In this document: positions 4,001-52,195 of the stretch, one piece after another
Layout: every line of letters starts with the position of its first letter
How positions within the stretch are numbered: the first letter of the stretch is position 1
Source: a virus
Lineage: Duplodnaviria; Caudoviricetes
Strand: one strand, 5' to 3'
Length of the DNA: 52,496 nucleotides
Virus record (IMG/VR): IMGVR_UViG_3300028045_000022
Span: 1 to 52,496 of that record
Notes under the pieces: model-generated
What the model saw: only the letters and a program-made list of their open reading frames with translations
The model's database searches: none
What the model was told of the DNA's origin: nothing
Translations under genes and position numbers: made by a program

Positions 4001-5400
4001 ATAATAAAAGGTTCAATACCTAAACCATTTTCAATATACTCTGATGTAAGGGTAGCATCTATAGTTAACCATTTTATACCATCATACTTAGCTTTATATT
4101 TAATAGACAATGATGCAAAATTTGCTGGGTCTAATAATTTTTCCATGTCAGCTAAAGTAGATATATGAAATTCTTCTTCTTTAGGAAGTTTAAATGCTAA
4201 TTTATTAACTTTAACATTATTAGTATTAATACTTTTATTAATATCTCGGAAGAAGAAATTATAAACTTCAGCAATAGGTTCACCGTTAGGATTAACCATA
4301 ACTGATTGTCCAGTAAAATGAACATCATTTAAAACTGTTAATGTATGCTCTGCTCTTTTATCAGATATATCACCAAATGTAATTAGTATATTAAATGCGT
4401 CTTCGTAGTCATTACCTATAGCAGAATTAATTCCAACATTACGACCTTTATTATCATATTTTGTATCAAATTGATCAGCTCGAAGTAATGCGTGTGGTTG
4501 TTCGACACCAAATGGTTTACCGTTAGAGTCACCCCAAATTAAATCTTCTAATACTTCAGCTGCATCTTCAAAATCTTTAATTTTATTACCTGTTGTAGAT
4601 GCAAAATCTACATTATTAATAGGTACATCTACTTTTTTAATAGTACCATCATCAAGTGTAATAGTTTCTGTACGTGATCCAGTACGCTCAACTTTAAGAT
4701 CTGCGCCTTTAAGATTATCTAATACTTCTTCTATAGTTTCTGATTGTCTAATAAGTCCTGGATTAGATGTACCAGTAACATTAACACTATTAGCCATATC
4801 GGTAGTTGTTAACATATTAGGGTCACCAAATGTTCTAGATCTTAAATTCTTAACAGCTAGTTCTCTTCCACTTTTTTGTTCTTCTATAAACGCTCTAATA
4901 ACGTTAAAATAGCCAACTTCTTTAAAAGCGATGGCAATCATACCTTCACCTAATACCGTGCCTTGAGCGACGGCATCGAAGTTCTGAGACGCATATGAGT
5001 ATATTGGTTCTTTAGTTTGTCTAATATTATATTGAATAGTTACGATATCATCAACCCAGATATCTCCAAAGAAAATTTTAGCTTGACTACCGCAGTAATA
5101 ATCATATTGATATGTGTCATAATTAAATCTAGAACTATACTTATCTGGTTTACGCATTTCACCGCGAGCTTGTTCAGCAAATCTTTGTTCTAATGCTTCT
5201 TTTGTTTCGTTTTGTATACGACTAAGCTTATCACTATCGTAGTCAGGTATTTCATTTGAATCTAATCGTCTAGCATATCTAGTGTCTTTAATTTTTTGTA
5301 CTCGTTCTTTTTCGGCACGAATACGTCTACCTAATCTAGGACTATCATTACCTTTTTTATCAATTATATTATCAGCAGCTGTAGCTTTATTGTTTGCCAT
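1015..5400 (-). CDS. large virion protein: N-terminal tail-tube-like domain, coiled coil, acidic repeats, C-terminal putative Cys-His (CHAP/NlpC-P60-like) hydrolase
   Basis: YYCGSQAKIFFG...IQYNIRQTKEPIYSY...VLGEGMIAIAF and FNILITFG...LNDVHFTGQS...IAEVYNFFFRDI parallel the two adjacent tube proteins. LSDEEFGFEVP occurs three times. The C-terminus has PCGRTV...EHEGVVVG...IGHSG. Confidence 0.6.
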   Translation of the reverse strand: MANNKATAADNIIDKKGNDSPRLGRRIRAEKERVQKIKDTRYARRLDSNEIPDYDSDKLSRIQNETKEALEQRFAEQARGEMRKPDKYSSRFNYDTYQYDYYCGSQAKIFFGDIWVDDIVTIQYNIRQTKEPIYSYASQNFDAVAQGTVLGEGMIAIAFKEVGYFNVIRAFIEEQKSGRELAVKNLRSRTFGDPNMLTTTDMANSVNVTGTSNPGLIRQSETIEEVLDNLKGADLKVERTGSRTETITLDDGTIKKVDVPINNVDFASTTGNKIKDFEDAAEVLEDLIWGDSNGKPFGVEQPHALLRADQFDTKYDNKGRNVGINSAIGNDYEDAFNILITFGDISDKRAEHTLTVLNDVHFTGQSVMVNPNGEPIAEVYNFFFRDINKSINTNNVKVNKLAFKLPKEEEFHISTLADMEKLLDPANFASLSIKYKAKYDGIKWLTIDATLTSEYIENGLGIEPFIMTHGKDYNTQMLTYIEDVTNTMFISNNFHIGDTLIDSTKVAIEVTFSNFTTTGDVDEQGYETLTGSSDLKPLNVLLERVGGSNFRVLLPSKNPSQIIDLIRREDFFRPNVDTKDQFEFNYNMSSNWQYRTAVEKLDDQIIDQNYNELVLEEARLIDALNEVERTGTPKYAQDIIEGVELQKSINERLYGENSTFKDIDGNKLYEPVDYNIADVNNFEDTDYFQQFGTNLKTGKYSDNLESFDKLLDEFAEADKETAIKRAELLELEKKAEETFEMHKDLFKDKGYVDYDIGETTDPIEDQDKALADRLAAKANQIAARQNDLILDNTEQQLRDEIIALGGDPDADLRLNELNSEISKLEEEALKLQANDNGLVNLIDKDVFGVKDKGEYIDVSKLSDKFTNTSIALTEAQKVADYIVSDEGQIQAAILRNYAATGNEDYIYTKLSDDQLAKYADVSDQNVEWLLSSDVLSDSEREILKAVKIQRDIIKEKEKQQVIQAQNNIKSDELASEEARLIEALNNPAIAETKDNVNPTINPDTVEVEITQDNTKEQQKKKDEIISSPNPETDVQISSDELGVNIPEDKQNKKTDVVIPERELSDEEFGFEVPDTEYEGMTEQPIIDNKKTNTVNPEPELSDEEFGFEVPQDEDNDESITEQPIINNKKTDNVNPEFEQPDLTDEGITSESIIDNVNPEPELSDEEFGFEVPENEQTKFVDFTNDISDFDPDSPEYFEDIVTKTARDIYFQNITVDADVQNYDVFETIDKIAFDNNYPTAAVLRVLAPIYTAQDFAGQFDEFGNIRIPKSRFSCPVNSPCGRTVNQWLSYVNPTIPYSATGNTDAFYGLAYNKEQGAKIIWKAERIAPADNFDAANNAVSSFIEGYNKGIFQFGDKVSLDQGGIKYATHLDPRKELPVEANLLNEHEGVVVGSIYDEKLDKLIPLIGHSGAGTKDFWIQRVDNLQFNTGKQYIPLAVFRATGYIDPTALVKSQLKKVDDTK
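1881..2220 (-). repeat. intragenic tandem repeats encoding ELSDEEFGFEVP
   Basis: ACTTCAAATCCAAATTCTTCATCTGATAATTC occurs three times (near 1889, 2075 and 2186), with related spacer segments (PIIxNKKTxxVNPE). Confidence 0.9.
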
Positions 5401-5419: not shown

Positions 5420-6430
5420 TTATTTTTTTGAAAACGCAGGCGATTGGGTATAATTTGGTTGAGTAGCAGAATTCATATCCCATGACATTTTAGTTTTTTC
5501 ATACTTTCTAATATTATTATAGGCTTTTTCTATTTCAGAAATTACAATTACTCTTCTTTTATCTAGAAGTTTAATTTGTTGCTGTGAAACTCGTTTAGAG
5601 TCTAAGCTACTAAATGTACTTTTACTTTTCTTACTAATCTCACTAATATTTTTAAGTATTGTTGATAATTCTTGTTCTAATTTATCAGCATATTTAACCA
5701 TGGAGGCATAATGTTCATCGATAACTTTACCTTGCATCATTTTATTAAATAATAAAGTTTGATGTTCACCACTAGAACCATTAGATACCATAGGATCAAT
5801 ATCTTTAGCTAAAAATTGCATAACATTTTCTGAATAAATGTCATTAATACTATATGTTCCACCTTCATCAGTAATCTCTACACCGTATATTCTAATAATA
5901 GAACTAAAGCCATATTCATTAGTGAATATAAGCATTAGATCGAATGGTGGTATTTCATCTGCGAGAGGTGAACTAAATCTATGAGGATTTTCTAATTTTT
6001 TATTAAAAAAGGTATATACTGCATTTAACGGACTTTCGTCAAATTGAACAAAAATTAAACTACCAGCGATAGTTCTTTGTCCACGAACATAATCTTTAGC
6101 ATACGTTCTACCTAGTGTGCGAACTGGCATTTTATCTCTATGTATAGAATATGTAGCAGTTTGAACATTACCAAGTATAACAATATTCTCGTTATATACT
6201 AAAGCTACTGTAACATCAGTCCCAGCAAAAGTTCGATTAGTATCAGTATAAATCATCGATACAGGTGACTCAATATCTCGACCATTAAGCATACTAGTAT
6301 CTCTAGGACCAGCTTTAAGGAAATCTAAACCGTTAGCATCAACACCGCCGATTATATTTCGAGTTCCTTGTAATGCAGCATTACCTAATGCTCGTCCAAC
6401 TTTTTTAAAAAACTTATCATCATCAGCCAT
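5420..6430 (-). CDS. tail tube-like protein (paralogue; possible baseplate tube initiator)
   Basis: FAGTDV...LGNVQTATYSIHRDKMPVRTLG...RGQRTIAGSLIF...DEIPPFD...NEYG...GVEITDEG aligns by eye with the 232-aa tube protein; it has an added C-terminal coiled coil. Confidence 0.7.
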   Translation of the reverse strand: MADDDKFFKKVGRALGNAALQGTRNIIGGVDANGLDFLKAGPRDTSMLNGRDIESPVSMIYTDTNRTFAGTDVTVALVYNENIVILGNVQTATYSIHRDKMPVRTLGRTYAKDYVRGQRTIAGSLIFVQFDESPLNAVYTFFNKKLENPHRFSSPLADEIPPFDLMLIFTNEYGFSSIIRIYGVEITDEGGTYSINDIYSENVMQFLAKDIDPMVSNGSSGEHQTLLFNKMMQGKVIDEHYASMVKYADKLEQELSTILKNISEISKKSKSTFSSLDSKRVSQQQIKLLDKRRVIVISEIEKAYNNIRKYEKTKMSWDMNSATQPNYTQSPAFSKK

Positions 6431-6504
6431 AAAGTTATAAACCTATAGAATTAATGACATGGGGACATCTGCCCCCAATGTCAAACGTATAAACCATAAA
6501 ACAA

Positions 6505-7203
6505 TTATACGGAAGGTCCTCGTTGATCCTGCGCAGCCCATGCAGAGCGAACAGCAGCTAAAGGACTATTTGCACCAACAACATTTGGCTCAAACGCTTT
6601 TAAGTCGCCACCAAATAGTGGTCTCCAAGTTTGAATAGCTCTCGCTACAAATGTCATTTGAGTTTCTGTTACAATATCATCTATCGATATACCAGAACCT
6701 TCATTGATAAATTCCACACCGAGTAACGCCATAACTGAAACTGAACCATATTCATTTTGTCCAGTTAAAGTAATAGTGAAAGGAGGAATTTGGTCTGAAT
6801 AGTTCGCTTTAGTTTTATTAACACCTTGGATGAAAGATAAATCACCTTCGAACGATTGAGTACCTAGAAGAGTAGATCTACCCCCAGCAGGGATATCAGT
6901 ACCTTTTGCGTAGTAGCTTAATTCTTGGCTACTACCTTCTAATGCTTTTTGTACATCATATAACGCGTGTCTATCGAAATTTGTAAAAATCATAGAACCA
7001 GCGTGACCACGTTTACCACGACCGAACGCAACAGCATCTACATTACCTAAAGTATATACAGGTGCTTTTTCACGAGTAGTTGAAAAAGATATACCGTTAA
7101 GATTACCTAAAACAACTCCATTAAGCGTCGCAATAATATCGGTACCAGCATGAGCATTATATGTTTGTGTTAAAGTGTCTGAAAAATTACTTCCATTAGC
7201 CAT
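6505..7203 (-). CDS. major tail tube protein
   Basis: Immediately downstream of the sheath. Motifs AGTDI...ISFSTTREKAPVYTLG...RGKRGHAGSMIF...DQIPPFTI...NEYG...GVEFINEGSGISIDD. Confidence 0.8.
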   Translation of the reverse strand: MANGSNFSDTLTQTYNAHAGTDIIATLNGVVLGNLNGISFSTTREKAPVYTLGNVDAVAFGRGKRGHAGSMIFTNFDRHALYDVQKALEGSSQELSYYAKGTDIPAGGRSTLLGTQSFEGDLSFIQGVNKTKANYSDQIPPFTITLTGQNEYGSVSVMALLGVEFINEGSGISIDDIVTETQMTFVARAIQTWRPLFGGDLKAFEPNVVGANSPLAAVRSAWAAQDQRGPSV

Positions 7204-21828: not shown

Positions 21829-23085
21829 CTATTTACTATTATCATCATTATTATTATATAAAGCATCATTGACAGCTGCTTCTAATACAAGTTTAGCAGC
21901 TTCTAAACATTCAGGACTCACCGCAGACTTATCACCTTTTTTAGTATTTTTAAAACCTGTATCTAAATCAGAATCAGGACAATCAGTATCGATAATATCT
22001 AATCCTTCACCAATACCAGGTTTATCTTTATCATCAGTAATAATATCACCATTATCATCTACTATATTTATTTTACCAGATTCGTCAGCTTTTTGTTTAC
22101 GACGTGTACCATAATCAGGACAATCTTTACCTATATTAGATTTACATAAATCCTCTAACGCCATAAAACCTTTTAGATATACATAAATTTGTATACCTTC
22201 CTCTGGTTTAAAATCAGACCAAGCACGTCTAGGAATTTTACATAAAAACATTAATTTTAATACATTTAAAATTTTGTGTATGATACCCCATTTATAATAG
22301 TTTTCAGTACTTATTATATAAAACGGAGGTTTAACAAATAATGATCTAGTTATAATAATTAATGCATCAATAGGTTTAGCTATGATTTTTTCAACGAAAT
22401 CAAAAATACCAGTCCACATTCTACACCAGATATGGTTCCAGAATAATTTGTTTAATAATCCAGCAAACATTTCACCCATTTGTTTAGCAAAGCTATCTTC
22501 CATAGCTGCTTTATTATCTAGTATATCTTTAATGCGTTCTTCATCATTTTTTTGAACAATATCAAAACCTTCAAATACAGCTTTAGTAACTTCTGAACAA
22601 TTAGAGTGAGGTATATTTAATGTGCCATCACCAAGTAATGCTGCAAGTTTAGTATTATAACCATTTAATGCGTCTACGAAATCTGGTGATGTAATAGTTT
22701 CAGCAGCATCAAATACTGGTTTAGTTATAGTTCCATCTTTAGAACCTAAAAGTTTAGCAGCATCTTTAACTCTATCACTCTTAGGTGTAATCTTCATATC
22801 TTTTAATAAATCATCTCGCATATCTTCTAGTGTTTTAACTAAGTCTTCATTTTCTTTAACATTATCAACTAGATCTTTAATGTCTTCTTTAGTAGTAGTA
22901 TCAACACCATCAGTTCCAATTTCACAAGAATCATTAGAACCTTTAGATATAGCAGAAGGTGCAGTTACTGGTCTGTCTGGGAATTTAATTCTACCTTCAG
23001 TTATAAGACTATTTAATATATTACCATCAATTGATTTACCTAATAAATCATCAAGTTCGATATTACTTTGATTATTTTTATCCAT
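21829..23085 (-). CDS. hypothetical protein
   Basis: ORF track; coupled to TerL through a TAATG overlap. Confidence 0.7.
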   Translation of the reverse strand: MDKNNQSNIELDDLLGKSIDGNILNSLITEGRIKFPDRPVTAPSAISKGSNDSCEIGTDGVDTTTKEDIKDLVDNVKENEDLVKTLEDMRDDLLKDMKITPKSDRVKDAAKLLGSKDGTITKPVFDAAETITSPDFVDALNGYNTKLAALLGDGTLNIPHSNCSEVTKAVFEGFDIVQKNDEERIKDILDNKAAMEDSFAKQMGEMFAGLLNKLFWNHIWCRMWTGIFDFVEKIIAKPIDALIIITRSLFVKPPFYIISTENYYKWGIIHKILNVLKLMFLCKIPRRAWSDFKPEEGIQIYVYLKGFMALEDLCKSNIGKDCPDYGTRRKQKADESGKINIVDDNGDIITDDKDKPGIGEGLDIIDTDCPDSDLDTGFKNTKKGDKSAVSPECLEAAKLVLEAAVNDALYNNNDDNSK

Positions 23086-24902
23086 TAAAATGTTCTCCTA
23101 AATCCTGTACCTAATATATTTGAGCTTCTAGAGTTTCCACGACCACCAACCATTCTAGGTCTACTATACGTCGGTGGTGCTTCTGGATCTCTAATAGGTT
23201 TATCATTCTGCTGTAGTATAGCAGATTTTGGAGAAGCACTATCTCTTCCTTCAAAATTATCTAATCTAGGATTACGCATATACTTAATTTTATTATCATA
23301 TGTGTTTTTTAATAGTAAACCGAACTGATGATAGAATCCATATATAGCTAATGTAAATGCGTCTAATACGTGGTCTTCACCTTCATATGTACAATCACCT
23401 CTAGCAGTTATAGATTTAACTGTATATGCTCGCATTTGATCTATTAATCTATGACTAGCATCTTCTTCTTTAGGTAATAACATTCTACCTTCTTCTAGAG
23501 ATAATACAGTTTGGTTAATCATTAAACCTTTATTTCTTTTTTTAACTTTTTTCTGAAGGATAGCGTCGTAGTGTTCAGTAGATGCACCAGAATCTATAAC
23601 ATGTAATTTTCTAGACATACCAAGAGATGGAACTTTTCTACCATGTAACGTTAGTTCTTCAACGTTTGTATCACCAGCACCATAATCAACATATAAGAAA
23701 TCGACTCTATAATAAGTCATTAATCTAATAATTTCATTACGAGTTTCTCTTTGAGTAGCTTCTTTAGATTTAACACCTTTACGATAGAATAATCTTATTT
23801 TACCAGTACAATCTATTTTAACATCTTCATTTTTTTCATGATCGTAAAATTCTATAAATGTAGGTTCATGACAATATTCAATCATTACAACTTGTCCACC
23901 ATTTTTATAAGTATTCCAATCAACCCCAATGATATATTTATTACCAGGTTTTTGTTCAAATCCTGGATCGAAGATATCTACATCATGACTATTAAAGTGT
24001 GAGAAATAATTAGCTAATGACTCATTAATATGTTTATGTTTATAAACACCTTGAAGTTCTTCACCGAATTCAGCACCAAACTCACGCATGTATGCATCTT
24101 CCGCCATCATAGATCTAAATTTAAATTCAGTTGAATCTGTTATAGGTCTACCTTGCTCTTCAGCTTGTTCAATAGATAACCAGTTAGGATTATCTTTATG
24201 CCAAGATGGATAGTGTTTTGACCACCAACCAATAGACGAACCTTTAGTACACCAATCATAAAATATATCTCGTTTACCTGACGGTGTAGAACATGCTCTA
24301 ATTTTAGTATGTTGATTAGTATTAGCAATAGGAAGAACAGATTGTTCCATAATATCTCTAGGTATAAAGTCAGCTTCATCAAGCATGAGTAAGTCAGCAC
24401 TTTGACCACGAACAGATGTACCTTTATTTGCAGAAGATATACCAAGGGTCATACCTTTAATAACTGAACCATTAGAAAAATGTATTTCATTAACATCAGA
24501 ACGTTTTACGCTAGTTATTTGTTCATTAAGAAAAGGTGAGTCAGCTATTAAATCCATTAGAGTATCAAATATCATTTTAATTTGAGCATCCATTGGTGTC
24601 ATTATAAGTACACTAAACGGAATAGGTTTAGTTCCATTTGTATTATACATAGTAGCTAATGGTTGCGCGACTGTCCACCATAATGCATCGGCACATAATA
24701 CAACAGTTTTTCCCATTCTTCTACCATATCTAAGAACTATCTGTTGTTCGTCTTTACTCGCATCTAACACTTCTCTTTGATAAGATCTTAATTTAAGAGG
24801 TTGTTGTGGATCGATAGGATTACGTAAAAATGTTTCCGCCCATTTTGACGGAACATTTAATATATCCGCGAATACTTTTTTCTCTTCTAAACTTAATTTC
24901 AT
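23085..24902 (-). CDS. terL: terminase large subunit
   Basis: LRSYQ adenine-binding motif, Walker A YGRRMGKT, Walker B LLMLDEAD, coupling motif STPSG, and nuclease motifs IIGVDWN and DHVLDA. Confidence 0.93.
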   Translation of the reverse strand: MKLSLEEKKVFADILNVPSKWAETFLRNPIDPQQPLKLRSYQREVLDASKDEQQIVLRYGRRMGKTVVLCADALWWTVAQPLATMYNTNGTKPIPFSVLIMTPMDAQIKMIFDTLMDLIADSPFLNEQITSVKRSDVNEIHFSNGSVIKGMTLGISSANKGTSVRGQSADLLMLDEADFIPRDIMEQSVLPIANTNQHTKIRACSTPSGKRDIFYDWCTKGSSIGWWSKHYPSWHKDNPNWLSIEQAEEQGRPITDSTEFKFRSMMAEDAYMREFGAEFGEELQGVYKHKHINESLANYFSHFNSHDVDIFDPGFEQKPGNKYIIGVDWNTYKNGGQVVMIEYCHEPTFIEFYDHEKNEDVKIDCTGKIRLFYRKGVKSKEATQRETRNEIIRLMTYYRVDFLYVDYGAGDTNVEELTLHGRKVPSLGMSRKLHVIDSGASTEHYDAILQKKVKKRNKGLMINQTVLSLEEGRMLLPKEEDASHRLIDQMRAYTVKSITARGDCTYEGEDHVLDAFTLAIYGFYHQFGLLLKNTYDNKIKYMRNPRLDNFEGRDSASPKSAILQQNDKPIRDPEAPPTYSRPRMVGGRGNSRSSNILGTGFRRTF

Positions 24903-24911
24903 TTAAACTCC

Positions 24912-25976
24912 TTAAGCATGCATCATTCCAGCTTCTTGTCCTAGTATACTTCTTCCATTCATTCTTGACTTAGAAATAGCTTGAATTGCACGTTGGCGTT
25001 CTGTTGCTGCACCTTGAGAAATGAATGCTAAGTTGAGCTGTCCGCCTAATTCAGGTCTAGCCATATTATTTATAGAATTAAATGTACTATCTACAGCTTG
25101 CGTTGCTGCTTGACCTATAGGGTTAGCTACCATTTTAATACCTTCATACATTAAACTACCAACAGCATAATATGCTGAACCTTTACCGAAGGCAGTAGCA
25201 GCCCTAAATAAACCGCGACCTAAACCTCTAGCTGCACCATATCCAGCTTTTAATGTATTTGCAGCTAATAAGTGCATTTGACCTAAAGCTTGATTATCAG
25301 TTACAATATTAACACCACTAAAAGCTGTGGATACTTTAGCTATTAATCTTGTAGCTTTAGCACCTAAAGTCCCAGATATATCTTTCATTGTAGCTATTTG
25401 TTTATCTATACCTTTCAATGCTCTACTTAAACTTTGTCTTCTAGCAAGAGGTTGATCTAAATCTAATATATCACCACCGATTTTTGATGCATGTGCTTTT
25501 AGTGTTGATAATGATGTACCATTTATACGCTTTTTAGCATTTGATCTCCATGCGTCTAGTTTTTTAACAAAGGATGTATCTGAAAATTTAGTTTTATTTA
25601 AACCAAAACTAAGTTGACCATCTATACTTCTATCTATAGTTAGTCCGATTGGGGATAACGCGTTATTTGCACCAGTTCTCATTCCTGGTAAAATACCTTT
25701 AGCTCCAGTTTTAAAATTAGATATAGACTCTGGATCGAATAGTTTATTAGCAGCCCAGTTAGCTCCTTGGGTCAATTTACTCCCAGCAAATTGACCTAAC
25801 TTACTATTTAATATAGGGTTGTCTTTAATCGAATTCAACATCACTCTACCATATGATGGTCGCCACATACCTGGATTATATTTGTACGCATAATGTGGTA
25901 ACATTGATGCGATTGCTGCATCTTTCGCAATACCTAAAACGCTTATTTGATCTTCCATATACGGTTGTTGTTGCAT
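24912..25976 (-). CDS. hypothetical basic Ala/Gly-rich protein (possible internal virion protein)
   Basis: ORF track; C-terminal AATERQRAIQAISKSRMNGRSILGQEA. Confidence 0.65.
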   Translation of the reverse strand: MQQQPYMEDQISVLGIAKDAAIASMLPHYAYKYNPGMWRPSYGRVMLNSIKDNPILNSKLGQFAGSKLTQGANWAANKLFDPESISNFKTGAKGILPGMRTGANNALSPIGLTIDRSIDGQLSFGLNKTKFSDTSFVKKLDAWRSNAKKRINGTSLSTLKAHASKIGGDILDLDQPLARRQSLSRALKGIDKQIATMKDISGTLGAKATRLIAKVSTAFSGVNIVTDNQALGQMHLLAANTLKAGYGAARGLGRGLFRAATAFGKGSAYYAVGSLMYEGIKMVANPIGQAATQAVDSTFNSINNMARPELGGQLNLAFISQGAATERQRAIQAISKSRMNGRSILGQEAGMMHA

Positions 25977-31374: not shown

Positions 31375-31633
31375 AAACTTCCTCCTTTGTAACATTTAAT
31401 ATAAACTTTAACCATTTCCATGTAATGTTAATATCTTCTGGATCATCTTTTATAACATCTCGTAATATACATGTACAAGATATAGCTGATCCGTCTTTGC
31501 CCCAATCGTCAATTCCACTACCATCACATATTTTACAATTCTTTTTAGGTTGTATTATACCACCTATTAAATCGTCGTCGTTAATATTTAAACTATCTGA
31601 CATTTTACGTATAAGATCTAAATCTATATCCAT
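31358..31633 (-). CDS. small zinc-finger protein
   Basis: CKICDGSG...CTC motif. Confidence 0.6.
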   Translation of the reverse strand: MDIDLDLIRKMSDSLNINDDDLIGGIIQPKKNCKICDGSGIDDWGKDGSAISCTCILRDVIKDDPEDINITWKWLKFILNVTKEEVYGTTS

Positions 31634-32163
31634 TAATCTTCTCCTTTAATATTAAGTCCAGCAAATATACCAGTTATATTTGGATCAAAATGGTATGGTC
31701 CAGTTCGTTCACCTATTAAAATTAAGTTACTAACATTTAGTAAATCTAAATCAGTAGGCATAAATTGATATTCATCTATAAAAATTTCATCAAATATATA
31801 TTGTAATTTTTTCGTTTTTACTTCATTATATGTTGCGAATTTATTATGATATCCGTTTATACTTATAATGTCATCATTAATTTCATAACCAATATTATTA
31901 GAAATACTTACATCTATCATTTGTTGAAATAACGTGTTACACATAGCTTTATTGTTAGATATTAGTAATGTATTTCTATGTTTATTAGCTAAAGCTTGCA
32001 TACATAAAAATATAGATTTACCACATCGTCTAGGTGCCATAATTATACATCTATTATTATTACTATAAAAGTCCATCATTTTATTTTGTATATGTGATAA
32101 CCATGTATAAGATATCTTTTTTACTGCATCTTTTTTATTATTCAGTAATCTTAGATTGATCAT
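31633..32163 (-). CDS. stand-alone terminase-like P-loop ATPase domain
   Basis: IIMAPRRCGKS (TerL-type Walker A) and FDEIFIDEY (Walker B), with no nuclease domain. Start moved to ATG 32163. Confidence 0.65.
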   Translation of the reverse strand: MINLRLLNNKKDAVKKISYTWLSHIQNKMMDFYSNNNRCIIMAPRRCGKSIFLCMQALANKHRNTLLISNNKAMCNTLFQQMIDVSISNNIGYEINDDIISINGYHNKFATYNEVKTKKLQYIFDEIFIDEYQFMPTDLDLLNVSNLILIGERTGPYHFDPNITGIFAGLNIKGED

Positions 32164-32308
32164 CGCTAATTTCTGCGTCAGATAGTTTAAGTTGTAATTC
32201 GTTATTAATCTTAACAGCATTATTTAATTCTGTTTTTAACATTTTAACTCTATTTTGTACTTCTAACATCAAATCGCATGTATCTGCGTAAAACTCATCT
32301 AAATTCAT
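32138..32308 (-). CDS. 56-aa coiled-coil protein
   Basis: Manual translation MNLDEFYADTCDLMLEVQNRVKMLKTELNN...; AGGAGG RBS; TATACTAT at 32341-32348. Confidence 0.65.
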   Translation of the reverse strand: MNLDEFYADTCDLMLEVQNRVKMLKTELNNAVKINNELQLKLSDAEISDDQSKITE

Positions 32309-45444: not shown

Positions 45445-45570
45445 ACGTGGAAAGTACGGAAAACACGTTAAAACTTGTACACAACAGGTTACAGTAGTGC
45501 CTGAGCATTTCGCTAAATACTACACAGATTCTAGTACAACTAGAGGAAAGGTGGCTATCATGGCTATCGT
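45445..45570 (+). ncRNA. structured leader, copy 3 (full length)
   Basis: Homologous to 44620-44747 with compensatory base changes. Confidence 0.7.
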
Positions 45571-47740
45571 TAAAACTTTCGCAGCACTCAAAAACATCGT
45601 AACATTTACTAACAACGTTGACATTAAACGTATCAGTAAAGAACAAGAAATCATAAACACTATGTCGAAGGAACAGTACTTCGGCCTAAGCGAACAGGAG
45701 TTTAAAACAATGACAAAGTCTGACTGGTACAAGAATGAAGAAACAAGATTGGATGCTTGGTTTAACCGAAAGGAAAGAGGTCTAGATAATGGACCAATCA
45801 TAAACGTTGATATTATAAAAGAGGCCAGAGCAAAGATGCATGCTGGTATAACTGAAGCTGATAACTTAAGAATTGCACTTAACCGTGCTGAGACAAGGAA
45901 TAACAATATGAAAAAGAACGAACTTCGTGCAGAGAAACGTGCTGCTAAGAAACAAGGGACTGAGATGTCTCTAACTATACATGGGTCTAGTTTTAAAGAT
46001 GAAATAAAGTCTAAATCTAACAAAGGAGTTAGTATGAGAAAGATAAGTATGTCCAAAGAGGCATGGGTTGAGACAATGGTTGCTGAAAATGCGGATTATA
46101 GGTATGGTCCATCAAGATTCTGCAATTGTTTTGATCATAAGGCAATATTAAAGGAGGCTATCAGTGAGCTTAAGGATGAGATCGATTGTCTTGATTCTAT
46201 CACAGATGAAGATAGAATATTATATCTTGAGTCTCAGGTTTTGGACTTGGAAGATATAGTGTATGCACCTCATATAAAGACGGAGTTGAGTACAGATGGA
46301 GCATTTGTATGTCCTGTTTGTAATGAATCATACAAGCACGAAGACTTAAGATTCGATTACATCGACGAAGATGAAATCAGAATTGATACAGAATATGCAG
46401 ATAGACGTAATGCGATTCTAGAGTCATTTAAATCTCCAATGCATAACCCAGAAATGAGTAATGAAATACCTGTTGTGATCGATAAGTGTAAGAAGGTTAA
46501 CCTTATTGGTAAGAACAAAGACACAATAGTAGAAAATGTAAAAGCGCTATTTAATACAGATAGTAATGGATCTCTATCATATGAGGATTATAATAAGTTT
46601 GAAGTTATTGAGAGTCTGATAATGACACCTGATGAACTTATTGCATCTGAAACTAGTAGTGATGGACTTGGTAATGAGTGTATGTCATATGAAGCGTTTA
46701 TGGGTTATGATTCTAATGATATGGAACGTAATGATGGTGATGATACAAATGATACACATGATGAATTGGATATAGCTGGGGCTGTAGATAAGATCTTGCC
46801 TTGGATTGGTGAATCTGTAGATATTAGAGGTATGCTCGACTTCAATGTAAGAAATTCTTTCGAGACAACACATGGTCATAAGTTTATACTAGGTAAGACT
46901 GAAGTTAAAGGTATGTTCGCTGACTACTATTTCACAAATCACACAATACTTAGAGAAAGGATTCAAAAGAAGGCAGAAGCTGCTAAAGCTGGCATAAATA
47001 AAGTGAATCGTATGATAGATATAGAACATGCAGATGGTAGTATTACCGAAGAGCGTAATATATCAGATGATGCATATAATACGTTAATTGAACGTCTAAC
47101 TGATGAATATTACTATTGGATGGCTTGGACTGAAGATGAAGAATGGAATGGTTATAAGAAGGTTCAAAATGGTAGAAATAAATCTATAGATCATGTTAGA
47201 GCTGGTGGTACACTTAAATACTACGTGTATATCAATAGAGATGGTAAGATATGTTTCGGATCTCATCCAGATACATATACAATGACGAGTGCAAAATATA
47301 TCGAACACGGCGATACATACATGTTAGCTGAGGATGACTATGTTGCAACTGCATATAAAGTATTTACTAAGATAGCACCAAGAATAGTTTGGAACTATAA
47401 CACATATAAAGGATATAACTTTGTAAATATAGGTATTAAAGGTAAGGATGGAAAAGTACATATGGGTTATGGTGGATTCGAGAATGGTCTTAAAGATGTG
47501 CTTCTAGATATTTGTGGTCAACCTAGGATGGCTGGAATAAACACATATCGTCAGTTTAATAACTTAGTTGAAACAGATGGTATGACTAAATTTGATTCAT
47601 CTAATGAGTTAATATCAAAACTAGCAGAAATGTTAAAGATCGATATTGTTCAATCAATTAAGAAACATAGATCAAGTAACAAATGGTTAGCTGATATTGA
47701 TGTTAAAGATGATAAAACTTATCGCTTTGAACTCAAATAA
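45560..47740 (+). CDS. large hypothetical early protein (726 aa) with an acidic middle and a CPVC motif
   Basis: ATG 45560 shares its RBS and start context with 44737; in-frame internal AAGGAG plus ATG at 46034. Confidence 0.75.
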   Translation: MAIVKTFAALKNIVTFTNNVDIKRISKEQEIINTMSKEQYFGLSEQEFKTMTKSDWYKNEETRLDAWFNRKERGLDNGPIINVDIIKEARAKMHAGITEADNLRIALNRAETRNNNMKKNELRAEKRAAKKQGTEMSLTIHGSSFKDEIKSKSNKGVSMRKISMSKEAWVETMVAENADYRYGPSRFCNCFDHKAILKEAISELKDEIDCLDSITDEDRILYLESQVLDLEDIVYAPHIKTELSTDGAFVCPVCNESYKHEDLRFDYIDEDEIRIDTEYADRRNAILESFKSPMHNPEMSNEIPVVIDKCKKVNLIGKNKDTIVENVKALFNTDSNGSLSYEDYNKFEVIESLIMTPDELIASETSSDGLGNECMSYEAFMGYDSNDMERNDGDDTNDTHDELDIAGAVDKILPWIGESVDIRGMLDFNVRNSFETTHGHKFILGKTEVKGMFADYYFTNHTILRERIQKKAEAAKAGINKVNRMIDIEHADGSITEERNISDDAYNTLIERLTDEYYYWMAWTEDEEWNGYKKVQNGRNKSIDHVRAGGTLKYYVYINRDGKICFGSHPDTYTMTSAKYIEHGDTYMLAEDDYVATAYKVFTKIAPRIVWNYNTYKGYNFVNIGIKGKDGKVHMGYGGFENGLKDVLLDICGQPRMAGINTYRQFNNLVETDGMTKFDSSNELISKLAEMLKIDIVQSIKKHRSSNKWLADIDVKDDKTYRFELK

Positions 47741-47743
47741 TAT

Positions 47744-47766
47744 TAACTGGGGCTTCGGCCCCTTTT
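47744..47766 (+). terminator. terminator-like hairpin (repeated at 48111)
   Basis: TAACT-GGGGC-TTCG-GCCCC-TTTT. Confidence 0.75.
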
Positions 47767-47803
47767 CTAAGGTATTTAATTAATTTTTAACAAAGGATAT
47801 ATC

Positions 47804-48109
47804 ATGATGAAGATTACAGGAAGTTACAGAATTTGGAAAAAAGGTGGGAACTTTAATAACCAGTTTCTACAAATGTATCTAATCATTGATGGTAAGAGAT
47901 TTGCCTTTAGTGGTTATGTTGATGAGAAGGATATGAGTCAAGTTAATATCTTATTAGCTGCTCATTGGGGTAATCTTAAGGTAACTAAGGATCTTAAGAA
48001 TGACAGAAAATCTGAACATGATGAGTATGTAGATTGGTGTTATGCTAGAGAGCTACACTTGAGTACATATATTGTACCATTTCTAATGCAGATTAAATAT
48101 ATAAAATAA
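47804..48109 (+). CDS. hypothetical protein
   Basis: AAGGA RBS; ORF track. Confidence 0.7.
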   Translation: MMKITGSYRIWKKGGNFNNQFLQMYLIIDGKRFAFSGYVDEKDMSQVNILLAAHWGNLKVTKDLKNDRKSEHDEYVDWCYARELHLSTYIVPFLMQIKYIK

Positions 48110-48110
48110 T

Positions 48111-48133
48111 TAACTGGGGCTACGGCCCATTTT
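48111..48133 (+). terminator. terminator-like hairpin, second copy
   Basis: TAACTG-GGGC-TACG-GCCC-ATTTT. Confidence 0.6.
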
Positions 48134-48148
48134 CTAAAGGATATTATT

Positions 48149-48454
48149 ATGAAAAAGAATATAAAAGTAAGAGAAATTAGTGTAACGATGATGGATAATG
48201 GTAAATATAAGCATGCACTTAGAGTATTTGCAGAATACACATTAATGATTGACATGAAGGTATATATTGAATATAACATAAACACTAATGTGTATAATGT
48301 ATACGTTGGATATATGGCTGCGCATAAAGTAATACTTGAAAACTGTTCAAAAGTAGAAGCTTGGGATAGATTATTAAGTATAAAACATTCAGAAGTATTA
48401 GATATTATTAAAGACATTCGTCGTATGGAATATCTAGCATCTCTTGAATCATAA
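48149..48454 (+). CDS. hypothetical protein
   Basis: AAGGA RBS; ORF track. Confidence 0.7.
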   Translation: MKKNIKVREISVTMMDNGKYKHALRVFAEYTLMIDMKVYIEYNINTNVYNVYVGYMAAHKVILENCSKVEAWDRLLSIKHSEVLDIIKDIRRMEYLASLES

Positions 48455-48459
48455 GGGAT

Positions 48460-48640
48460 TGTTCCTCCGCACACCTCCGCACCCAAAAGCATGCGTCTCG
48501 TCGTTCCTCCTCACCTTACTTTGGTGGTCGCTTCGCTCCATGGGGTTATAGCGGCACTCGTTCCTCGGCCTTATGGACCACTCGTTCCTCGTTCGGATTT
48601 TGGGTGGTCGGTAACATCTAACTGTCACCTCCGCACACAA
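48460..48640. other. GC-rich branched non-coding element
   Basis: CACCCAAAA/TTTTGGGTG closing stem; CTCGTTCCTCG twice; CCTCCGCAC three times. Confidence 0.55.
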
Positions 48641-48764
48641 CAACAGTGGACACGCTCAGTATTATCTGTAACATATATCGTTTGTGTACGCAGGAGTTAA
48701 AAATGTATAGAATGTCTTATTCAGTGTCTATCAAATGGTTGGTAGGCGCAAACAAGGGGTTGTT

Positions 48765-49073
48765 ATGAGAATAACAGTCGGTAGAGTTGGTACCAACAAG
48801 TTTGGTGTAACCAATATCAAGGTTGATAGAACTACCATCCTTGGTAACCCTTTTCCGATGAAGAATCAGTCTGACAATGAACGCACTCGCGTATGTTTAG
48901 AATATGTTAAGTATTTCGTACGCATGGTTAATTCAGCTGGTCCTTTTCGGGACGAAGTTGGGAGAATATATAAGCTTGCTAAGAGTGGTAAGTCTATTAA
49001 TCTCCAATGTCATTGTGCACCTAAGCAGTGTCACGCAGATACAATCAATAAATTTATAGAAAAATATTTATAG
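48765..49073 (+). CDS. DUF4326-like protein
   Basis: VDRTTILGNPF...LQCHCAPKQCHADTI matches the DUF4326 signature (GNPF; LxCxCxPxxCHxD). Confidence 0.8.
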   Translation: MRITVGRVGTNKFGVTNIKVDRTTILGNPFPMKNQSDNERTRVCLEYVKYFVRMVNSAGPFRDEVGRIYKLAKSGKSINLQCHCAPKQCHADTINKFIEKYL

Positions 49074-49118
49074 AATGTCTTAATTGATGTTCTATTTAAC
49101 TTTTTTAAAGGAGTTCAC

Positions 49119-49313
49119 ATGGGTGAATTTATGAAAGCTTTTAAGAATGACTTAGCAATAAGTTTATTCGGTAGGAGCCAAGATGAAGCACAGGATAAAG
49201 CAATTTGTGTTTCTTGTGGCGGAGATGCAAGCGAATTCGTTGACGAAGTAAGTCAGCACGAATACTCCATTTCAGGAATGTGTCAAAAGTGTCAAGATGA
49301 ATTTTTTGGCTAA
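49119..49313 (+). CDS. small zinc-binding protein
   Basis: CVSCG...EYSISGMCQKCQDEFFG; AAGGAG RBS. Confidence 0.75.
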   Translation: MGEFMKAFKNDLAISLFGRSQDEAQDKAICVSCGGDASEFVDEVSQHEYSISGMCQKCQDEFFG

Positions 49314-49392
49314 ATAAAATTAGAATGTCTTATTCAGTGTCTCTTAGGTGAGGCACTACTATAAGATTTTTTAACATTTTCAAGGATTTATT

Positions 49393-49545
49393 ATGAAAAA
49401 TTTAGTTGATCTTTTTAGCTCAGACGTGTCACATTTGTTACATTTAGGTTTTAGGCCTGAAGATTTCAATCCAAGACCCGTAGATAAAGTTGAGTTTGGA
49501 TACAAGGAAGATTTCTTAGATACAGAGTTTGATGACTTTGACTAA
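49393..49545 (+). CDS. 50-aa acidic peptide
   Basis: Manual translation MKNLVDLFSSDVSHLLHLGFRPEDFNPRPVDKVEFGYKEDFLDTEFDDFD; AAGGA RBS. Confidence 0.65.
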   Translation: MKNLVDLFSSDVSHLLHLGFRPEDFNPRPVDKVEFGYKEDFLDTEFDDFD

Positions 49546-49599
49546 GAAAAATAAATAGAATGTCTTAATTGATGTTATTCAAAGGAGTTCATCACCAAA

Positions 49600-50160
49600 T
49601 AGCCTTATATCTCTGACTGGTGAATCAGAGGGAAATTATTAGATAAGAGCAAACTAATGATTAAATATGAGGCCACCGCTCGTTTTTAACTAAAGGAGTA
49701 GCAGAAATGCTATAGTTTCAGACCTGAGTCATGTCACAAAACTGACTTATTACGGACTATATGGGGGTAGGATCTCTTCACTTATGAACAGTAATGTTCT
49801 CGGTGAGTAGTCTGGGGGTTTGGTACTGACCTAATTAGTAAAGTACTACTGGTTTTTAATGATTGCACCAGTTATCCTAAAACAATCATAATTCGTATCT
49901 AAAATCTGGGAAGGCTTTGCGGAGCTGGAGTAAAAGATACGTGCATTTTTGTAGTAGATCTTAATAACAACACTACATTGATGTACTTAAATATTAAAGT
50001 TGTTATAGGAGTTGTGTACACTTCTTTGATGGTATAAAACCAAAGTGCATTTATGCGTAATAATTTGATATTGTGTCTAGTAACGCGCCAATATCATCTT
50101 ACTGAAAGACTACAGCGTGTTAAAGGAGTTGGGTACACTTCTAATAAAAACAAGTGCCCA
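49600..50160 (+). ncRNA. ORF-free array of structured RNA modules (three-way junctions plus six H-type pseudoknots)
   Basis: No ORF of 60 aa or more. Pairings are listed in the findings; non-Watson-Crick stem positions are G-U on the + strand. Confidence 0.75.
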
Positions 50161-50230
50161 TTATATTTTATAAGATATACTAAAATGAATAGTGCGTCTT
50201 ATTAAGTATAATTTTTAACTAGGAGGATAT

Positions 50231-50512
50231 ATGAGAGATCATTTATCAAAATTGAACTTCAAATATGACGACAAAGGTCAACAAGCTATTCTTTTCTTCC
50301 TTAATGGATATGGTGTATCTGTTGTATGGGGAGAAGGTAGGTACGGTGATGGTGTTGATTCTTGGGAATTGGCTGTACTCAAAGGTGAAATGGATAATTG
50401 GGAACTATGTTATGACACTGATGTAACTTGTGATGTTATGGGTTGGTTAGATCGCAGTGAGGTTAACAAGGCAATCGAAGATGTTTACAAGTTAGAATTT
50501 GTAAATGAATAG
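50231..50512 (+). CDS. hypothetical phage protein
   Basis: AGGAGG RBS; FLNGYGVSVV...WELAVL...DVMGWL pattern. Confidence 0.75.
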   Translation: MRDHLSKLNFKYDDKGQQAILFFLNGYGVSVVWGEGRYGDGVDSWELAVLKGEMDNWELCYDTDVTCDVMGWLDRSEVNKAIEDVYKLEFVNE

Positions 50513-50677
50513 AGTGTCTTAATTATTGATTCTTGATTAAGGAGGAACCACAATTGAGGGTTTACTAAGAGAGTTAGGTATCTACTGTAAAAGATATTAA
50601 TTCCATCTAAGAAGAGAGGGATGGTATAACAAATACTTCTCAAACTAATTTTTTTAAAACAATATCTAGGAGATATT

Positions 50678-51103
50678 ATGAATAACACAGCTGACAACAC
50701 CAGGACTTCAAACACTATCAGTGACCTTTTCGATGCAGGAAATCCAGTAGCTAGAGAACAGATAAAAACCAGAACTGTAAGAAAAAGCGAGAAGGATCTC
50801 ATAATCCAACAAATTAAGAATGAAGTCAATGTTATTAAAGTTAACAGAGATAACTTACTTAAAACTGCTAACGGTGATAAAATGCTTACACACCAGATAA
50901 ATAGTGAAGCGAAGACACGTATCCTTGCATTGCAGATTAAATTTCAACCTGCCATTAAAAATGCCAGCATTGACGTTGAAGCAGTTGGGGAAGCATTATT
51001 TTCTATGGGTGGTGAAAAAGTAGGTGCATTTGTCGCAACTCCAGTTAAAGCAGCTAAAGGGTTTTTTGGTTCTCTTATGAGAAGAGCAGGTATAATCAAA
51101 TAA
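50678..51103 (+). CDS. hypothetical protein
   Basis: AGGAG RBS; ORF track. Confidence 0.7.
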   Translation: MNNTADNTRTSNTISDLFDAGNPVAREQIKTRTVRKSEKDLIIQQIKNEVNVIKVNRDNLLKTANGDKMLTHQINSEAKTRILALQIKFQPAIKNASIDVEAVGEALFSMGGEKVGAFVATPVKAAKGFFGSLMRRAGIIK

Positions 51104-51127
51104 TAAGGTTTCTTCGAAATTCCCCAG

Positions 51128-51160
51128 GTCATCTGCCGAATGGTGGGTGGCCGCTTTATT
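51128..51160 (+). terminator. terminator-like hairpin
   Basis: GGTCATCTGCC-GAAT-GGTGGGTGGCC followed by GCTTTATT. Confidence 0.45.
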
Positions 51161-51194
51161 AACTAATTTAATAATAATTATCAAAGGATATGTC

Positions 51195-51605
51195 ATGTTT
51201 AATATTAAGAATGCTGTAGAGAAAAAAGTAATCGGTAACAAAATTAGGACCTTTATCGAAGATCTTGATACTCAATCTATACTTGAAATTGGTGAAATTA
51301 TCGGAGACACATTTAAAAAGATATTAATATCTGAATCTTTAATGTTAACTGATATGGTTAAAGACAACAAAGAACAATTAATTAAACTAGCTGAAGATAA
51401 TTCTAATCTTATTATATCCTTAAATAATTCTTGGGATATGTGGACCGAAGCTAAAACTAATAAAAAGAATCAAGATAATGTCAAATCTATTAAATCTAAT
51501 ATTAATAGAAGTTGGAATGAGTTTCTTGAAAGAGTAGATTGCATAAACGAAGATAGTAACAAGGCTGTTGCTAACAATAAGTATATCGCTAAATTTAATA
51601 AGTAA
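51195..51605 (+). CDS. hypothetical protein
   Basis: ATG 51195 follows AAGGA. Confidence 0.7.
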   Translation: MFNIKNAVEKKVIGNKIRTFIEDLDTQSILEIGEIIGDTFKKILISESLMLTDMVKDNKEQLIKLAEDNSNLIISLNNSWDMWTEAKTNKKNQDNVKSIKSNINRSWNEFLERVDCINEDSNKAVANNKYIAKFNK

Positions 51606-51607
51606 TC

Positions 51608-51958
51608 ATGGAAAGCATATTAATTTTCGGTATCTTAATGGCGCTTGCTGCTGGATTATTTTGGGTAATCGAGGCTCAACCGTATGTCAGAAAATTAAAA
51701 GAATTAAAGAAAGAACACGCTAATGCTACCGCTAACGTTTCAACTATACGTAAATATGCTAGTAATACAGCATTTACTATTAAAACTGGAGCACATATAT
51801 ATCTATTGTTACCTTTAGGTATAGATCTATTTATTACAAGTTCATTAGCATCAATGTTAGGTTTTGGTGGAATGGTCGGTGGTATCATCGGATTATTCAT
51901 CTCTAATATCATTTCATTATTTATTATAGTTGTAGCTGCAAGTATGAATGGAAAGTAG
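51608..51958 (+). CDS. membrane protein (about 3 TM segments)
   Basis: Hydrophobic segments at both the N- and C-termini. Confidence 0.7.
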   Translation: MESILIFGILMALAAGLFWVIEAQPYVRKLKELKKEHANATANVSTIRKYASNTAFTIKTGAHIYLLLPLGIDLFITSSLASMLGFGGMVGGIIGLFISNIISLFIIVVAASMNGK

Positions 51959-51964
51959 GACATT

Positions 51965-52195
51965 ATGGTTAAAGATTTAACAATCGCTGTCGCTGTTAGG
52001 ACCACAGAGCATGGAAACTCAGGGTATATATTATATATGCCCAATAGTTCAGGTAACGGTCGTTATGGATGGTATACAACGTCACATGATACTGATCATA
52101 TGATTAGACAAGAACTTCAAAATGATGCTGAGGATTATGGAAGATCATTAGTTATCTGTACACCTGATAGACAAGCATATTATGGAATTAAATAA
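51965..52195 (+). CDS. hypothetical protein
   Basis: AGGA RBS; ORF track. Confidence 0.65.
   Translation: MVKDLTIAVAVRTTEHGNSGYILYMPNSSGNGRYGWYTTSHDTDHMIRQELQNDAEDYGRSLVICTPDRQAYYGIK

Follow-up and report, generated by a model that had tools for sequence, protein, structure and literature searches.

A 685-nt spacer on the + strand of a marine viral contig (49546-50230) contains a cluster of candidate H-type RNA pseudoknots that exceeds chance, and the stretch is non-coding. The contig, a 52,496-bp IMG/VR record recovered from seawater and estimated to be 23% complete, was analyzed as a whole and is referred to here as the window; its source is an uncultured marine myovirus. On the basis of the sequence, and with confidence somewhat short of even, we tentatively propose that the stretch specifies an orphan + strand structured non-coding RNA (ncRNA) composed of three modules, each of which would join two kinds of pseudoknot, termed a and b. 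The modules appear to have arisen by duplication, with the pairings kept as the sequences diverged.

An earlier note on this DNA had listed six consecutive pseudoknots, PK1 to PK6, in the spacer. All of the listed arm pairs were found in place and pair as claimed, with inter-stem junctions of 0-1 nt and with non-Watson-Crick stem pairs that are exclusively G-T on the + strand. Five of the six hold up as strong candidate pseudoknots, while PK1 (49721-49747) does not, its 3-bp first stem being at chance level (pair probability 0.0) and its second stem being a credible plain hairpin (pair probability 0.98). The a-type units are PK2 (a1, 49848-49889), with perfect 6-bp and 7-bp stems and a junction of 1 nt, PK3 (a2, 49950-50006), with perfect 6-bp and 8-bp stems, a junction of 0 and a 3′ end that abuts PK4, and PK5 (a3, 50066-50122), with two 8-bp stems. 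These three share their topology and a YUARURA-like stretch at the border of loop 1 and stem 2, and their stem sequences are wholly different. The b-type units are PK4 (b1, 50007-50050), in which an AGGAGT/ACTTCT hairpin sequesters a Shine-Dalgarno (SD)-like sequence and the loop GTGTAC pairs with a downstream GTGCAT, PK6 (b2, 50124-50160), formed by AGGAGT/ACTTCT and TGGGTAC/GTGCCCA with the third loop TAATAAAAACAA and with TTATATTTTAT after its second stem, and an extra unit absent from the earlier list, b0 (49816-49848), formed by GGGTT/GACCT and TGGTACT/AGTACTA, which has the GGTAC loop common to PK4 and PK6 and abuts PK2. In PK4 and PK6, which are near-identical, the first stem has as its 5′ arm AGGAGU, the ribosome-binding sequence of the phage itself, which pairs with ACUUCU; in all three b units a 7-nt hairpin loop containing GUAC pairs downstream over an A-enriched loop. 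The units are heterogeneous in size (33-57 nt), and adjacent a and b units abut with gaps of -1, 0 and +1 nt, which would allow end-to-end stacking of as many as four helices. The third loops, described in the earlier note as A-rich or carrying a small hairpin, are A-enriched (A = 49/97 against a background of 0.33, p = 2e-4), which fits loops running along the minor groove as in classical H-type pseudoknots, and UAAAAC-like A-rich runs recur in the loops. The complementarity is present in the DNA; the folding itself is predicted.

The density of these units was compared with that of dinucleotide-shuffled sequence in a helix-pair scan, and it exceeded that of the shuffles. With a first stem of at least 5 bp and a second of at least 6 bp, 7 candidates were found, compared to 1.46 ± 1.25 in 300 shuffles, and 5 of them were non-overlapping, compared to 1.21 ± 0.94, a count that 0 of the 300 shuffles reached. 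When both stems were required to have at least 6 bp, there were again 7 candidates, compared to 1.02 ± 1.21, with 0 of 300 shuffles reaching 7. The weak class to which PK1 belongs (first stem of at least 3 bp, second of at least 5 bp) gave 68 candidates in the real sequence and 43 ± 10 in shuffles, placing PK1 at chance level. Under loose criteria, 9 of 1038 600-nt segments of the + strand reach 5 units and 8 of those 9 are this region, while on the - strand 13 of 1038 reach at least 5, elsewhere and inside structural genes. An energy filter (each stem ≤ -4 kcal/mol, sum ≤ -10 kcal/mol) left 10 non-overlapping units on the whole + strand, 4 of which lie within this 597-nt stretch against 0.11 expected, and 14 on the - strand, 1 of which lies in the stretch; the enrichment persists over the five thresholds tried. 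The strand asymmetry, 4 units versus 1, is due to the G-U pairs and argues for RNA. Among the 639 + strand candidates of the whole window, PK5 ranks second and PK6 fourth. A scan of 80 other phage loci (587,071 bp, both strands), made with a slightly looser filter under which this region holds four units, gave 9 clusters of three within 500 nt and not a single cluster of four.

Comparison of the modules with each other suggests how they may have come about. A diverged tandem duplication with a 117-nt period spans 49940-50175 and comprises unit A (49940-50056, PK3 and PK4) and unit B (50057-50175, PK5 and PK6), which have 77% mean column identity in alignment; within it, two copies of a 25-nt segment, TGTTAWAGGAGTTGKGTACACTTCT, lie at 50001 and 50118 and are identical at 23 of 25 positions (92%). 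Of the 63 columns of the a-type part, 28 differ, and a strong H-type pseudoknot is found at the same place in both copies. When the changed columns were re-drawn neutrally, any balanced pseudoknot was kept in 19 of 5000 simulations, and one as good as that of unit B in 1 of 5000. In the second stem of the b-type units, anchored on the GUAC of the loop, positions 5 and 6 are G-U and U-A in b0, U-A and G-U in b1, and G-C and G-C in b2; thus two positions have changed on both sides among three paralogues with zero broken pairs. An alignment of the b units with MAFFT placed b0 and the 3′ arms of the second stems out of structural register. The earlier statement that the units share topology rather than sequence is only partly right: it is correct for the stems of the a-type units, which are entirely different, and incorrect for PK4 and PK6, which share the 25-nt repeat, and for PK3 and PK5, which are diverged paralogues. 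As a separate observation, the 3′ arm of the second stem of PK4 (50042-50050) can also form 9 pairs with GATGTACTT in the third loop of PK3 (49980-49988); this alternative pairing in unit A is part of the local minimum free energy (MFE) structure and is not conserved in unit B.

The coding potential of the stretch was scored with a three-periodic Markov model trained on the long open reading frames (ORFs) of the window and expressed as log-odds per 100 nt. Neighboring small ORFs scored +1 to +7 in nine of ten cases, with the tenth at -0.33, whereas 49540-49900 scored -10 to -17 in every frame. All three + frames are full of stops, and the sole + strand ORF of at least 25 aa in the 685-nt gap is a 50-aa frame (50053-50205). 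This frame scored -3.1, below all ten neighboring ORFs, has no SD, traverses the next intergenic motif, and gave no PHROG, PADLOC or sequence homologue. Tandem Repeats Finder reported nothing in 49546-50230, and the spacer showed no iterons, no flanking terminal inverted repeats and no switch in GC skew.

The spacer lies in a + strand block that begins at ~45.5 kb and consists of small genes, mostly without an assigned role, downstream of a - strand structural module (1-44152) with genes for tail sheath, portal, large terminase, major head protein and endolysin. Its 5′ neighbor is a 50-aa ORF (49393-49545) and its 3′ neighbor a 93-aa ORF (50231-50512), whose product belongs to PHROG 4074, a widespread phage family with relatives at 40-54% identity. 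Most small genes of the block are preceded by a 37-nt intergenic motif with the core TAGAATGTCTTAWTYRRTGT / TAGAATGTCTTA, found by repeat search in six copies (48699-48735, 49062-49098, 49312-49348, 49547-49583, 50181-50217 and 50501-50537); the 20-nt core has 5 matches in the window compared to 0.27 expected. The copies start right behind stop codons, 20-60 nt ahead of the next ribosome-binding site, and each is followed by a strong ribosome-binding site. At the start of the spacer (49547-49591; repeat families D1 and D4), a motif copy (TAGAATGTCTTAATTGATGT) and the usual ribosome-binding site AAAGGAGTTCA are present with neither a start codon nor an ORF behind them, and a weaker copy, 65% identical to the reference copy, closes the cassette at 50181-50217 ahead of the 93-aa ORF. 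The motif is promoter-like, and a -10-like hexamer, TAGAAT, was listed for only one copy in a consensus scan. Early expression of the stretch, as supposed in the earlier note, would be suggested by this promoter-like motif alone. No terminator-like site was found on the + strand between 47762 and 51127, so the spacer may lie within a polycistronic RNA.

The flanking motif, as distinct from the pseudoknots, resembles the promoter/terminator cassettes of T4-like phages called PeSLs (PMC4122927; see also PMC2839356), in which a short conserved regulatory motif is repeated among small ORFan genes of a variable region. The six copies between small genes here match that arrangement, whereas the sequence is another one and PeSLs are not known to include long ORF-free structured spacers. 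By analogy, the motif may behave like a PeSL cassette (PMC4122927), with putative activity as a composite early promoter and stem-loop terminator. Strong ribosome-binding sites followed by mini-ORFs only were also observed in this part of the window: at 49696-49715 (ATG CTA TAG), at 50007-50038, where ATG GTA TAA lies within the third loop of PK4, and at 50541-50569, where TTG AGG GTT TAC TAA lies in a 165-nt spacer (50513-50677).

Homologues of the stretch in related phages, which the earlier note had looked to for covariation, were found nowhere among GenBank phages, IMG/VR, metagenome contigs and relatives. Phage GenBank records gave no relative in either distant or near mode, and a search of IMG/VR with the 19-mer core gave one chance-level match (L003). 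Neither blastn, nhmmer nor the motif detected a relative in the 80 loci that carry relatives of the 93-aa gene, and the metagenome contigs containing AGGAGTTNNGTACACTTCT comprised 50 loci in unrelated contexts, approximately the chance number, with no nhmmer match. The stretch was not found in the whole records of five relatives with terminases 66-79% identical, and in the closest phages whose contigs extend to the corresponding position, the motif, the stretch and the 747-aa gene that opens the + strand block are all absent. Neither the 93-aa nor the 747-aa gene had a close relative in scans with single proteins. Two DNA sequencing runs and no RNA run were listed; one of the two may be the source, and the other, which contains a low-depth relative, gave no contig over 49418-50377. 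In the 72 of 80 loci with at least 900 nt upstream, the gap upstream of the relatives of the 93-aa gene has a median of -1 nt and a maximum of 239 nt, indicating that this gene family does not have the long spacer as a conserved leader. On the syntenic side of one relative (G002), there are other small genes with a different upstream repeat. In this relative (locus L151), a 68-nt upstream segment that includes ORF starts is repeated at 2436-2503 and 4086-4153, and its block of small + strand genes adjoins a tail-fiber gene, which fits a hyperplastic region with cassette turnover.

Several results weigh against a structured ncRNA. The scan criteria were fixed after the earlier list had been seen and are post hoc, and loose criteria give equal densities in coding segments elsewhere in the window. 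Nested MFE z-scores are weak on the + strand (-1.14 and -1.70; -0.39 and -0.64 on the - strand), and the nested ensemble assigns a high probability only to the first stems of PK3 and PK5 and the second stem of PK1, leaving most of the claimed stems low. In the global MFE structure, the two b units pair with each other. A crude greedy fold that allows for pseudoknots selected none in the real sequence; it used rough parameters of the Dirks-Pierce model, with an initiation of 9.6 kcal/mol and 0.1 per loop base, and blocks the whole span of a pseudoknot, and as it also chose none in 399 of 400 shuffles, it cannot discriminate. A two-pass fold was too greedy to be informative. When a simple pseudoknot energy was compared to the nested MFE of the same segment, the pseudoknot was better for b0, PK2, PK5 and PK6 (4 of 7 units), tied for PK3 and PK4, and worse for PK1. 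Frame 1 of 49900-50200 is weakly coding-like (-6.6 to +1.4). Unit b0 has a shifted first-stem register relative to b1 and b2, and its apparent compensation is partly by construction, as the scan that found it demands pairing; b0 thus counts for less. Finally, with no homologue there is no independent covariation.

We compared the stretch to known RNA systems. Neither at gathering thresholds nor at E ≤ 10 did any Rfam family match it, including ToxI and PreQ1, for which the earlier note had suggested a check. Strings of consecutive pseudoknots are found in transfer-messenger RNA (tmRNA; PK2-PK4) and in the upstream pseudoknot domains of plant-virus 3′ untranslated regions, and these resemble the stretch in having several H-type pseudoknots with nearly no linker that are able to stack quasi-continuously. 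In contrast to tmRNA, the stretch has no tRNA-like domain, tag reading frame, or ARAGORN or Rfam match, and it lies in a DNA phage. With default settings ARAGORN gave 0 genes for the window, and at 70-80% thresholds only implausible hits, none of them on the + strand of the region, and tmRNA was rejected on these negative ARAGORN and Rfam results. The preQ1-I/II and SAM-II/V riboswitches are pseudoknots that sequester an SD, and they share with the b units a size of ~35-45 nt, an H-type fold with a purine-rich SD strand in a stem, and an A-rich third loop along stem 1; they differ in that here no regulated start codon follows the SD and the units alternate with a second pseudoknot type. A search with PreQ1-I (RF00522) gave one 9.7-bit match in the window, at 25550-25583, and none at the b units, and with no start codon at working distance the preQ1-I riboswitch was rejected. 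We found no description of heterogeneous pseudoknot arrays in phages in the literature, in a search that was narrow and is no proof of absence from print.

The system that the earlier note had linked to the stretch is type III toxin-antitoxin (TA). In these loci, a promoter precedes an array of short tandem repeats, followed by a terminator and the toxin gene, and the ToxI and CptI units fold as H-type pseudoknots (PMC5086642). Like the type III antitoxins (ToxI, CptI, TenpI and antiQ), the stretch has candidate H-type units in series that would lie on one RNA, and the b units share with CptI, whose first loop is a single base and whose last loop is long and A-rich, a first loop of 0-1 nt and an A-enriched last loop (PMC5086642). 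The likeness between CptI and the SD-containing units is a generic one, common to classical H-type pseudoknots. In contrast to the antitoxins, there are here two kinds of unit, paired and of 33-57 nt, without near-identical repeats, a terminator or a toxin. The repeats amount to a two-copy 25-nt segment at 117-nt spacing, and the best matches to ToxI (RF02519) in the record are ≤ 12.9 bits, outside the region, with a cut-off of 50. As the earlier note had also reported, there is no adjacent toxin gene: the eleven + strand ORFs of 45497-52195, searched against Pfam, PHROGs and PADLOC, gave no ToxN-, CptN-, TenpN- or AbiQ-like match, nor did the 50-aa frame 50053-50205, which was included for PHROGs and PADLOC. 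Membership in type III TA was rejected, as the repeat array, terminator, toxin and ToxI model all fail, and the proposed link is not supported.

The structured ncRNA that we favor would either be transcribed by itself from the promoter-like motif at 49556 or form an intercistronic segment of the small-gene transcript, and its core (49816-50160) would consist of three modules, each with one a-type pseudoknot (6-8 bp and 7-8 bp, with long loops) and one b-type pseudoknot. As its most plausible role, we infer a stable binding platform: the RNA could serve as decoy or scaffold for an RNA-binding protein or for the 30S subunit, and the putative binding sites would be the conserved b units that contain the SD. 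That this role is purely inferred weighs against the proposal. Regulation of one single gene is probably not what the RNA does. A more specific form, in which a marine jumbo-type phage makes a dedicated sponge RNA whose stacked double-pseudoknot modules, with their SD mimic and A-rich loops, titrate a host RNA-binding factor (a defense endoribonuclease such as a type III toxin, or ribosomal protein S1 / the 30S subunit), is quite unlikely. To our knowledge, phage ncRNAs are poorly catalogued, and only a few cases of RNA-based counter-defense are known, among them antitoxin mimics and CRISPR-repeat mimics. If correct, the structured ncRNA would represent a new RNA architecture of alternating pseudoknot types, duplicated and kept by structure-preserving change, and the sponge RNA would represent a new class of RNA-based counter-defense or takeover element.

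The stretch may instead be relic DNA, that is, one or more decayed small-gene cassettes, partly duplicated in a region of fast turnover, in which the complementarities have no function. This is a serious possibility, if a rather unlikely one. Decay would account for a cassette start (motif and AAAGGAGTTCA) retained without an ORF, for b units that open with the phage's standard ribosome-binding sequence, for a 117-nt repeat that is in frame (39 codons) in the region where frame 1 is weakly coding-like, for a hyperplastic region in which relatives with terminases 66-79% identical carry other genes or no match, and for the missing homologues and weak fold z-scores. A 30- to 40-fold strand-specific excess of balanced pseudoknots, the retention of both pseudoknots after 44% divergence and A-enriched third loops are not expected from decay; moreover, both differences in the 25-nt repeat are non-synonymous in frame 1, and the 50-aa ORF has neither SD nor homologue and scores below all real ORFs. 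Were the stretch a relic, it would show how easily short interleaved complementarities in AT-rich spacers are over-read. The 50-aa frame is the starting point for the suggestion that an unannotated small protein gene (50053-50205) accounts for part of the stretch, given that it is the only open frame and that frame 1 scores above the others, but a frame that lacks an SD, runs through the next motif, scores -3.1 and gave no PHROG, PADLOC or sequence homologue makes this extremely improbable. At the level of DNA, an ORF-free, repeat-containing spacer could be a replication origin, a packaging site or a recombination hotspot of short inverted repeats, and the perfect Watson-Crick stems of PK2 and PK3 are strand-symmetric. 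However, inverted repeats interleaved in pseudoknot order are meaningless in duplex DNA, the G-T pairs make the pattern specific to the + strand (4 versus 1 units), and iterons, tandem repeats, flanking terminal inverted repeats and a GC-skew switch are all lacking, so a DNA element is highly improbable.

Among explanations that retain an RNA, a cis element of the small-gene transcript, serving as an intercistronic stabilizer, a processing barrier, or a ligand, protein or temperature switch, would have the AGGAGU/ACUUCU helices and the second-stem helix with its U-rich tract control downstream genes. The lack of a terminator-like site in 47762-51127 and the TTATATTTTAT that follows the second stem of PK6 are consistent with this, and there is a likeness to pseudoknot riboswitches such as preQ1 and SAM-II in the SD that is sequestered in a weak helix with G-U pairs and an A-rich loop. 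However, none of the SDs in the b units has an ORF start at working distance, the 93-aa gene is served by a motif and an SD of its own 70 nt further on and has relatives without a long leader, no PreQ1 or other Rfam riboswitch matches, and a search of real gene starts in the window found no b-type units there; a cis element is therefore unlikely. The cassette of antitoxin-like decoys neutralizing ToxN, CptN, TenpN or AbiQ that the earlier note had envisaged is, by analogy to the type III antitoxins, a conceivable use of H-type pseudoknots, since CptI loops resemble the b units, UAAAAC-like A-rich runs recur in the loops, and pseudo-ToxI repeats are known to let a phage evade ToxIN (PMC5086642). 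It is nevertheless very unlikely, as the region has no near-identical 34-45-nt tandem repeats and no ToxI model match, the units are 33-57 nt with their A-rich runs within rather than between pseudoknots, and the architecture is generic to H-type pseudoknots.

Other features of the window were noted in passing. The first ORF of the + strand block (45497-47740), of 747 aa, has no Pfam or PHROG match and no homologue among 5.8 billion proteins searched or in the closest relative phages. In the structural module, two adjacent ORFs (5420-7203) both match the N-terminal part of one major-head-protein PHROG (9206), and the large-terminase PHROG 2 is matched a second time, in part, by a 194-aa ORF that lies 7 kb from the full terminase gene (23085-24902 / 31633-32220). 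Upstream of the spacer, 48455-48660 is likewise ORF-free, has ~50% G+C compared to roughly 30% in its surroundings, and gave no Rfam match and no tRNA, with fold z-scores of -2.2 on the - strand and -0.1 on the + strand. It contains many short C/T-rich repeats complementary to the GGAGG-type ribosome-binding sites of the phage and similar to anti-Shine-Dalgarno sequences (CACCTCCGCAC three times, CACTCGTTCCTCG twice, and GTTCCTCC).

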